DNA of 34,896 nucleotides, taken from positions 1-34,896 of the IMG/VR virus record IMGVR_UViG_2548877009_000017, one strand, 5' to 3'. The position numbers and the translations under genes were made by a program. The notes beneath the pieces are model-generated. The model had not been told where the DNA came from and made no database searches. It saw only the letters and a program-made list of their open reading frames with translations. Positions 1,045-2,943 of the stretch are shown piece by piece. The stretch's first letter is position 1, and each line of letters opens with the position of its first letter. This stretch comes from a virus (lineage: Duplodnaviria > Heunggongvirae > Uroviricota > Caudoviricetes).

Positions 1045-2943
1045 TTACATGTCATTTTCTGAATTATAAATAAGTACAACCTGACCTGAATACGTTGCTT
1101 GTGATGACCACCCTGTATCCATATTGTATGGCCTGATCCTTACTTGGCTTGAACTAATTAATCTAGCTTTTATAAGCCATGTATCATCGTTTGTGTTTGC
1201 TGCTACCTCCTGAATTGATACTGTATTTGCTGGCTGGAATTGATCTGGTATTGCTCTTGTTACAACCCTTGACGATCCAGATACTGTTAGTGTGAAAAAC
1301 TCCCTACCTGATGTTGATATAGATTGGCAACCTTCAGAAAAGTTGTTTCTTATATCTGGCCTGGATGATCTTCCTTCTGCTATGGTCTTCATGCGAATAA
1401 CGCTAAGTGGCATTACAGTTCCCGTTGTATTACGGAATCTGCAACCTGTTATCTTAACCTGAAACGGATTTGATATAAGATTTATTGCAACTCCATGTTC
1501 AGGTACTAACCAGTTGCATGAGCTAACAGTAAATCTCGCACCGTCTGAGTTTGATTCAATTAAGCATCCATCGAAATAGCATCCAACAAAAATATCTGCG
1601 TTAGACATTATAACCACACGCCCTTTTGCGCTATCAGCAGACTGATTTGGATAAAAATGACTATTACTAAAAGAATTTGCTCCTTTACGTAAATACATAA
1701 CATCTGCATACTGTGAACCAATAACTAAGTCTGAGAAGTTATTATCATAGTTGTTGATATCCAAGCCAACGCCATCTGTAACGTTAGTTGGGTAAGAAGC
1801 ATTCCAATCTGGTTGTTGAAATATAAAAGTTTTTCCCACATTTAATTCATGTGGCTGTGAGTCATTTGGTTCAGTCTTTAATCCATAACGCAAGTATCTT
1901 GTCAGTAGACCTCCCCATATAGTCACTTTCAAAAAGTCATCATAAACCCTAATTGCGCCGGAAGCTTTCCAGTTAGCATCGATATTAGGATTAAATACCA
2001 CGATGTTTTCAATTGGTCTAGAGCCGTTAACTTTACGAAAATCTAGAACAGGTTCTGTCGAAGGAAATGCTCCAATTGCTAAAAGAGATGGATTCAACAT
2101 AGAAAAATTCAAACAATCTGTTATTGTAAATGGACGTGATACATAGTAGGTGCCCTGAGTCATATCAAAAACAGTGCCACCCAAATTGTACATGTTTGGA
2201 TCTTCTCTATCAGTTGAGTAAGTTGTTTTGCGATTTCTCTTGATTATACTATCTCTCCACAAATCCAGTGCATCAGAGCTGTCGAATGTTGAATCGCATG
2301 GTTTTGCTCCGTAATTTCTTGGGTCATCTACTGAATACCCAGAAAGAAATCCAACACACACCCATGTTGAGTCTGGAGTGGAGCCTGGCGTAACTATATA
2401 ACCATCAATTGGTATATTTCCTATATATGAATAATACATTCCATCTGAATATTTGAATGATTCGTATTTATTTAATATCACTCCGCCAACTGACATATCT
2501 CCAGATTTTTTGTATACATATGGCATGTAATCGCTATAAACATTACCACCATATGTGCTCCCGACAATCTTATCTCCATTGTTTGATGAAATATCAACTC
2601 GCAACTGATCAGGATCATACTTCAGTAAATTAGGAAAATAGAACTGCTGCACACCATATGCATCATAAACAGCCATAGAGTGGCCTTGCACAGTTACGAA
2701 CTTGGCAATCTGTCCGTTATATACAGGGTAACCAGCAGCGTTAATGATGATTGGTTGCGAAACAGGAACGTGAGAGCCGTCTTCGTTCTCCACATAAACC
2801 TGAATCTGGTTTTCAGGGTTTTCCGGGTCAGTGTCAATTTTACCGATATAAATTTTACCATTGGCTACGGCTTTAAAAGAACGAGCCATAGTGAAGAGTT
2901 GCGAAGGCATGCTTACCACAACATTTGCGGTGATATCTGACAT
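1045..2943 (-). CDS. Tailspike protein (P22 gp9 family) with conserved N-terminal head-binding domain and a divergent receptor-binding body
   Basis: N-terminus [40 protein letters not shown]...LKYDPDQ matches the P22/Sf6 tailspike head-binding domain; true ATG at 2943 (the ORF-track start at 2991 is an in-frame upstream extension); remainder is Ser/Gly/Asn/Tyr-rich, beta-helix-like. Confidence 0.9.

Follow-up and report, generated by a model that had tools for sequence, protein, structure and literature searches.

The tailspike gene at positions 1,045–2,943 of the IMG/VR virus record IMGVR_UViG_2548877009_000017 presents a puzzle: its product begins as the tailspikes of phages P22 and Sf6 begin, but it does not continue as they do. 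Where do its parts come from, how are they joined, and what might the unfamiliar part recognize? We analyzed the entire 34,896-nt record (referred to as the window). A preliminary description of this DNA, made without database searches, had proposed a domain swap at a single junction near nt 2600, and had suggested that the resulting O-antigen specificity is paired with an adjacent O-acetylase. Our analysis makes it very probable that the gene encodes a mosaic P22-type tailspike and that it forms a cassette with a linked acyltransferase gene. The mosaic has one more junction than was proposed.

Module boundaries of the tailspike

The gene is a 633-codon open reading frame (ORF) on the minus strand, running from an ATG at 2943 to a stop codon at 1045–1047 and encoding 632 residues. 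Its first module (aa 1–114; window 2602–2943, minus strand) is a P22-type head-binding domain, the virion adapter. The Pfam Head_binding profile (PF09008) spans residues 1–113 over its whole length with an E-value of 5e-66, and the sequence matches to PDB entries found by phmmer, which include the N-terminal domain of Sf6 gp14 (7sg7, 1.7e-63) and P22, all fall within residues 1–119. In pairwise blastp alignments this part of the protein is 72% identical to P22 gp9 (aa 1–117), 87% to Sf6 gp14 (aa 1–118), 86% to HK620 gp9 (aa 1–131) and 89% to the CUS-3 endosialidase (aa 1–123). Nothing after residue ~131 resembles any of the four, and the ~500-residue body gave no alignment with them better than E 0.2. 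The same contrast is seen among PHROG families: the head-binding domain matches 30 of them over the first ~110–140 residues (19–213 for one), whereas the body matches none. The preliminary description was therefore right both in recognizing the first ~110 residues and in finding the remainder unlike the P22 endorhamnosidase body. The protein is not a close copy of any one characterized tailspike, either; its full-length matches, at 99.6% identity, are unstudied prophage genes in seven E. coli genomes.

Similarity to other P22-like tailspikes and to related prophage backbones ends just after a KYDPDQ motif, at aa ~113–115 (window 2598–2606), as judged from the ends of megablast matches and from mismatch density. 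Among 50,697 phage records, megablast found 28 that match the gene, over its nt 1–346 only. In E. coli prophages that match the whole window, with ~97% identity across the virion genes, every match stops at 2599–2606. Per-base profiles against HK620 and the E. coli prophage of WCHEC4533 tell the same story, remaining at ~90–95% identity to gene nt ~340 and dropping to background from nt 342–346 (window ~2598–2602). The predicted swap at the head-binding boundary is thus real, and it lies where it was expected.

It is not the only one. The sister allele of E. coli fECg99.1 differs from the tailspike at a single position in gene nt 34–699 (666 nt; 99.85% identity) and then falls to ~55–60% (~57%) from nt 700, which corresponds to aa 234 and window ~2244. 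We place this abrupt recombination breakpoint, located by per-base profile and blastn, at window 2240–2248. The claim of a junction near nt 2600 therefore stands, but the claim of a single junction does not. At the other end of the gene, nt 1–33 (window 2911–2943) carry 11 differences from the fECg99.1 allele, which there encodes MTDITANVIVS; this is a tiny extra patch of mosaicism at the 5′ end.

Between the two junctions lies a second module of ~120 residues, a neck or linker (aa 115–233; window 2244–2601, minus strand), delimited by phmmer, PHROG and an AlphaFold2 (AF2) model. In the model it contains a small beta-rich domain (aa ~145–200), a short helix (208–211) and most of a longer helix (223–236), which the second junction cuts at aa 234. 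An exhaustive phmmer search returned dozens of proteins that match this segment only (aa ~120–225) at 36–52% identity. Some of them carry it directly behind a head-binding domain and others ~220 residues into unrelated tailspikes, and the segment has weak PHROG matches of its own. The third module, the receptor-binding body, comprises aa 234–632 and the stop codon (window 1045–2243, minus strand). Judged by these comparisons, the tailspike is built from three exchangeable modules: head-binding domain, neck and body.

The receptor-binding body and the neighboring acyltransferase

What kind of protein is the body? Searches by sequence gave few answers. No Pfam, NCBIfam or PHROG family was found for it, and a profile of the body family had no match among PDB sequences. 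By blastp, PDB phmmer and the family profile alike, the body showed no sequence homology to the bodies of the P22 gp9 endorhamnosidase, Sf6, HK620 or CUS-3. Its relatives form 12 clusters in a set of 5.8 billion proteins; in another set, of 1.84 billion, 10 representatives score below E 1e-30. Repeating the word-index search with a profile made from seven sequences of the body added no further relatives. Those that exist are found on other kinds of virion. Escherichia phage P762, a Kayfunavirus of the Autographiviridae, encodes the body at 70% amino acid identity (QUR34677.1, aa 139–631) in the gp17 tail-fiber position. Other relatives, at 50–71% identity, carry PF18668 or PF03906 (T7 tail-fiber) N termini in place of a head-binding domain; one with the PF18668 adapter comes from a phage contig of ~72 kb that also encodes an SU10-type portal. 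P762 and the metagenomic relatives (P0003–P0012) are the only real homologs of the receptor-binding part. They differ from the tailspike in their N-terminal adapters, which are PF03906, PF18668 or without annotation and match other virion types, and none has been characterized. The idea that the body differs from that of P22 can thus be refined: it is unrelated in sequence, and it belongs to a tiny unannotated family held in common with virulent phages of other types.

We also noted three unannotated phage records, OR850875.1, OR844702.1 and OR846963.1, that encode one relative of the body at ~54% identity. Their labels name phages of Salmonella, E. coli O104:H4 and Listeria. The last label is implausible for an enterobacterial-type tailspike and may reflect mislabeling or carry-over.

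The fold was addressed by structure prediction. In the AF2 model, computed for a monomer from a 12-sequence alignment, the body begins with the end of the 223–236 helix, continues as a right-handed parallel beta-helix (aa ~252–540; window ~2190–1324) and closes with a C-terminal beta-sandwich (aa ~546–626; window ~1308–1066). Confidence, given as predicted local distance difference test (pLDDT) scores, is mostly 60–94 per 10 residues over aa 141–420 and best (87–94) over aa 261–360. The N-terminal domain and the C terminus were poorly modeled from so small an alignment, because a deeper search gave no new relatives; the head-binding domain suffered in particular because only two of the aligned sequences carry it. 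Foldseek returned the Sf6, Det7-type, HK620, P22 and CBA120 tailspikes for the body model. As modeled, then, the body has a beta-helix, depolymerase-like fold. Among homologs 45–74% identical to it, many Asp, Glu, His and Arg residues are invariant in conserved motifs such as PHELN (364–368), LDI..YDNN (394–402) and YFDGC (456–460), which fits a conserved active or binding groove; E366, D395, D400, D414, D437, D450, D458 and D467 are among the invariant positions.

Directly downstream, and convergent to the tailspike, lies a gene for a 328-residue integral-membrane acyltransferase of the AT3 family (window 1–987, plus strand), a putative O-antigen modification (seroconversion) gene. The protein matches PF01757 (Acyl_transf_3) over residues 3–306 with an E-value of 2.8e-28 and PHROG 3333, annotated as "O-acetyltransferase". 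It is polytopic, with at least eight hydrophobic segments, and bears the motifs of O-acetyltransferases of the Sf6 Oac type: a histidine in the first transmembrane segment (H21), FFFLVTG at 46–52 and RLTR at 66–69, with no fused SGNH domain. The roles of the transmembrane histidine, the FFxxSG-like motif and the RxxR motif are known from work on Oac and OafA. Among the 50,697 phage records the acyltransferase has no homolog at E ≤ 1e-5, and the nearest other protein cluster is 36% identical. The O-antigen as target and acetyl as the transferred group are best regarded as putative, by analogy with Sf6.

The two genes are tightly linked. Among 5,426 complete E. coli genomes, the tailspike allele occurs in seven at 99.6% full-length identity, and the acyltransferase gene occurs in the same seven and nowhere else. 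The gene occupies the slot that is taken by oac in Sf6, gtrABC in P22 and neuO in CUS-3. The pairing that had been suggested is thus borne out as linkage (7/7), and from this linkage a paired specificity of the two products may be supposed.

The host O-antigen as candidate substrate

Where the tailspike occurs is informative about what it might bind. Two of the carriers, JNE170426 and JNE181771, are published E. coli strains that make Shiga toxin (STEC), of serotypes OX18:H2 and OX18:H19 (PMC8084502, PMC10793325). OX18 is an emerging serogroup of STEC negative for the locus of enterocyte effacement; it has caused fatal hemolytic uremic syndrome and is missed by commercial antisera (PMC8084502). 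Using the galF–gnd interval of another carrier, 2014C-4587, as the OX18 O-antigen cluster reference, we found the cluster in 12 of the 5,426 genomes, which include five of the seven carriers and also fECg99.1, the source of the sister allele. This enrichment has a hypergeometric p of 4e-13, a value that overstates the support because the carriers are not independent. The OX18 carriers nevertheless differ in H type and sequence type (H2/ST847 and H19/ST205) and hold the prophage at two sites, so at least two separate acquisitions are likely. In JNE170426 the prophage is sited differently, and the O-antigen cluster was not found by proximity to it, as it was in 2014C-4587; the clusters of PM22 and Ec40743 were reached by map navigation.

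Published work gives these observations a framework. In E. coli O-antigen-specific tailspikes, receptor-binding domains are exchanged among Lederberg-, Kayfuna-, Gamaleya-, Kutter- and other viruses; the tailspike type of a prophage tracks the O-serogroup of its host; and conversion genes may sit behind the receptor-binding protein (Virol J 2023, PMC10408124). The terms OX18 and P762 have no occurrence in that paper, so the body subtype appears to be unassigned. The closest parallel is Sf6 with its tailspike gp14 and its acyltransferase Oac. Both systems have the order ejection genes, tailspike, terminator, convergent AT3-type acyltransferase and integrase (the last known here from a Logan contig, L016), and both have a beta-helix body behind closely related head-binding domains. 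They differ in that the two bodies have no detectable sequence similarity, in the ~120-residue neck between adapter and helix, and in the host, which is S. flexneri for Sf6 and E. coli, mostly OX18, here. P22 has its tailspike, gp9, at the same genome position and likewise has a convergent O-antigen conversion locus downstream, but its endorhamnosidase body is unrelated in sequence and its conversion proceeds by gtrABC glucosylation, not by an acyltransferase. HK620 (an endo-N-acetylglucosaminidase, O18A1) and CUS-3 (an endosialidase with NeuO) have the same type of junction after KYDPDQ and a glycan-modifying gene downstream of the tailspike; their bodies are again unrelated, and their cargo is a wzy-like gene in HK620 and the phase-variable neuO in CUS-3.

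The most likely reading, by analogy with Sf6, is that the tailspike depolymerizes the O-antigen and that a seroconversion gene is its partner. For trimer formation, catalysis, substrate, acetylation and exclusion, the scheme that follows draws on general knowledge of P22, Sf6 and HK620 and on PMC10408124. The N-terminal domain (aa 1–114) would dock the trimer on the tail hub as a conserved virion interface, and the neck (aa 115–233) would join this adapter to the body. The body (aa 234–632) would bind, and most probably cleave, a host surface polysaccharide, allowing the virion to reach the outer membrane; it would thereby set the host range, having been acquired by homologous or illegitimate recombination at domain boundaries. 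In the lysogen, by analogy with the Sf6 tailspike and Oac, the acyltransferase would modify the same polysaccharide; this would alter the serotype and keep phages with this tailspike from superinfecting the cell. As to which polysaccharide, we consider the OX18 O-antigen the most likely substrate, at about even odds.

Several points weigh against this reading. Overall, the AF2 model is of middling quality (mean pLDDT 66; 46–85 in the C-terminal third), catalytic residues could not be assigned in the modeled body, and the fold by itself cannot separate a hydrolase from a lyase or a pure binder. Between the acyltransferase and Sf6 Oac, identity is just 27%, over 95 aa. The seven carriers have one protein accession in common, and several have the prophage at one insertion site. 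Two of them, moreover, are not OX18 but have O28-type clusters: that of Ec40743 is annotated as O28ab-type, and that of PM22, which is related, includes VioA and glycerol-phosphate genes. The clusters of these two strains resemble each other (wzy 31%, glycerophosphotransferase 40% and cytidylyltransferase 73% identical), but have in common with the OX18 cluster only glycosyltransferases of 24–32% identity, the best at 31–32%. A sugar linkage common to the three O-types was considered and dropped, since identities in this range are too weak to support it. The specificity may therefore not be strictly for OX18. In the two exceptions, the O-antigen may have been replaced once the prophage was in place, the specificity may be broader, or the receptor may be something other than the O-antigen. 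The literature searched yielded no OX18 O-antigen structure; a single apparent match was a false one, to "OX188".

The difficulty of telling enzymes from binders by fold leaves room for the body being a non-catalytic adhesin, or having another chemistry, such as that of a lyase or a deacetylase, in place of an endoglycosidase. We consider this unlikely. The invariant acidic, histidine and arginine residues in the beta-helix motifs form a pattern typical of an active-site groove, and a deacetylase would be expected to have an SGNH or similar fold, of which none was seen. To our knowledge, all characterized P22-like tailspikes are enzymes.

Somewhat less likely still is that the body targets another glycan, such as a group 1 or group 4 capsule, colanic acid, enterobacterial common antigen or an element of the lipopolysaccharide core, and that its association with OX18 reflects clonal ancestry. 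The two exceptional carriers would be explained in this way, and the shared accession leaves some scope for clonality. However, the OX18 enrichment is extreme, and the differing H and sequence types of the OX18 carriers, together with the two prophage sites, make clonality alone an improbable cause. The adjacent AT3 gene, too, fills what is the O-antigen conversion slot in related phages. Colanic acid is an unlikely common receptor because PM22 appears to be without the colanic-acid cluster: in the stretch of this genome that we read (L008, 12625–16433), a single 222-nt ORF lies between galF and yegH, and the wca genes that the other strains have there appear to be absent.

An O-antigen depolymerase with a seroconversion gene thus remains the reading we prefer. 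A bolder version of it would be that the body founds a new family of OX18-specific O-antigen depolymerases and travels with an orphan acyltransferase, whose relatives reach at most 36% identity, the two making up a self-contained cassette for recognizing and then masking the host. We put this forward tentatively, as rather less probable than not. If it were true, the tailspike could find use as a reagent for typing or capturing OX18, a serogroup that serology cannot type, with the acyltransferase defining an unrecognized OX18 antigenic sub-factor. More generally, tailspike bodies set the host range of phages and are used as serotype-specific reagents for detection and decapsulation, and this one adds a receptor-binding type that has no Pfam, PHROG or PDB relative and is statistically tied to OX18.

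Mobility of the cassette and its prophage setting

How did the tailspike and the acyltransferase come together in this prophage? The two genes lie in a ~3.6-kb cassette that is 99.4–99.9% identical across three chromosomal contexts and that contains part of mnt, the tailspike, the acyltransferase and ~265 nt including a 3′ remnant of an integrase gene. Its left edge falls inside the Mnt/Arc-type gene, where similarity to the dacD-site prophage begins at window ~3298. The first context, dacD, is that of 2014C-4587 and, as inferred from a 57.7-kb spacing to the O-antigen cluster, of JNE181771. The second, ybhB/bioA, is found in Ec40743, PM22, LR-51 and 23-AB02114. The third, yfdC (the argW site), is represented by contig L016, in which an integrase (385 aa, with the Phage_integrase Pfam domain) directly follows the acyltransferase. 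These comparisons indicate movement of the cassette from one prophage backbone and integration site to another. Because the integrase is intact at the argW/yfdC site and a remnant elsewhere, we suggest that the tailspike–acyltransferase block arose in a phage of the Sf6 type that integrated at argW, and that recombination later carried it into prophages of other sites. The integrase remnant, 84 nt of the 3′ end, closes the cassette in the ybhB/bioA and probably the dacD prophages, where it appears in the annotation as an incomplete hypothetical protein; the segment lies at 9152–9235 in L016, at 8152–8235 in L005 and at ~9208 in L001.

The base composition of the window also changes in steps, from 29.8% GC in the acyltransferase through 37.5% in the tailspike body and 42.7% in the head-binding domain to ~50% in the virion genes. 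Although selection by the host does make receptor-binding domains change rapidly, it is extremely improbable that the mosaic look merely reflects ordinary divergence of a fast C terminus on a conserved N terminus, an explanation refuted by the megablast ends, the per-base profiles and the backbone comparison: identity falls from ~90–95% to background within ~10 nt at the first junction and from 99.85% to ~57% at one position at the second, GC is 43% before the boundary and 37% beyond it, prophages whose bodies are unrelated match the rest of this prophage at 97% identity, and the relatives of the body in a Kayfunavirus (70%) and on other adapters (50–71%) are all without the head-binding domain.

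The principle of module swapping is well established for P22-like phages, and this tailspike is an additional member rather than a new mechanism. What is new, as far as such comparisons reach, is a hitherto unannotated body family, its putative OX18 specificity and an unusually clean cassette linkage. With its clean breakpoints and strict linkage to the acyltransferase, the locus shows in tidy form how cassettes are exchanged in nature.

The neighboring genes are typical of a P22-like prophage. A block of capsid, portal, terminase and ejection-protein genes lies upstream in transcription, on the same strand as the tailspike. The ORF map, annotated copies and the reference layouts of P22 and Sf6 all place the tailspike gene at the position typical of P22-like (Lederbergvirus-type) genomes, behind ejection genes of the gp7/gp20/gp16 type and mnt, the order also found in P22, Sf6 and HK620, and before the conversion/att end. 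The immI region is cut down to a single gene for a 97-residue, Mnt/Arc-type ribbon-helix-helix repressor (window 3032–3325, plus strand; Pfam Arc and Repressor_Mnt), which is divergent from the tailspike. The 88-nt interval between the two genes (2944–3031) contains neither arc nor ant, unlike in P22, which has both between mnt and the tailspike.

We take 2943 as the start of the tailspike because a GGAG Shine-Dalgarno sequence (2954–2951) precedes this ATG by 7 nt and RefSeq annotates a 1,899-nt gene with the same start in related genomes. A longer ORF from an upstream ATG at 2991, which the RefSeq copies do not use, was rejected, and small ORFs within the gene (e.g., 2680–2940, plus strand) were taken as spurious. 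The tailspike differs from the RefSeq copies at eight nucleotides; that seven of these fall on third codon positions is in keeping with a gene that is expressed and subject to purifying selection.

A GC-rich hairpin (994–1026; ACACACCACCATAATATATGGTGGTGT) with a 15-pair stem, a likely terminator, lies in the 57 nt that separate the convergent tailspike and acyltransferase genes. A terminator scan called the hairpin and its T-rich tail on the minus strand only, the direction of the tailspike; since the stem is near-palindromic, it may also act on the acyltransferase transcript. A terminator is annotated at the equivalent position in Sf6. The window begins at the ATG of the acyltransferase, so the promoter of that gene lies outside it.

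The ejection module varies independently of the tailspike: the gene at 3415–5808 (minus strand) encodes the last ejection protein, of 797 residues, with an N-terminal lytic transglycosylase domain, whereas other prophages with the same tailspike cassette have gp16-type proteins of 614–665 residues instead. A final observation concerns WCHEC4533 (L010, 2432–3820), in which a backbone 97% identical to the window carries a different, 799-residue tailspike body, and in which the acyltransferase slot is occupied by a GDSL-type esterase gene and a DUF1796 peptidase-like gene, another cassette of tailspike plus cargo.

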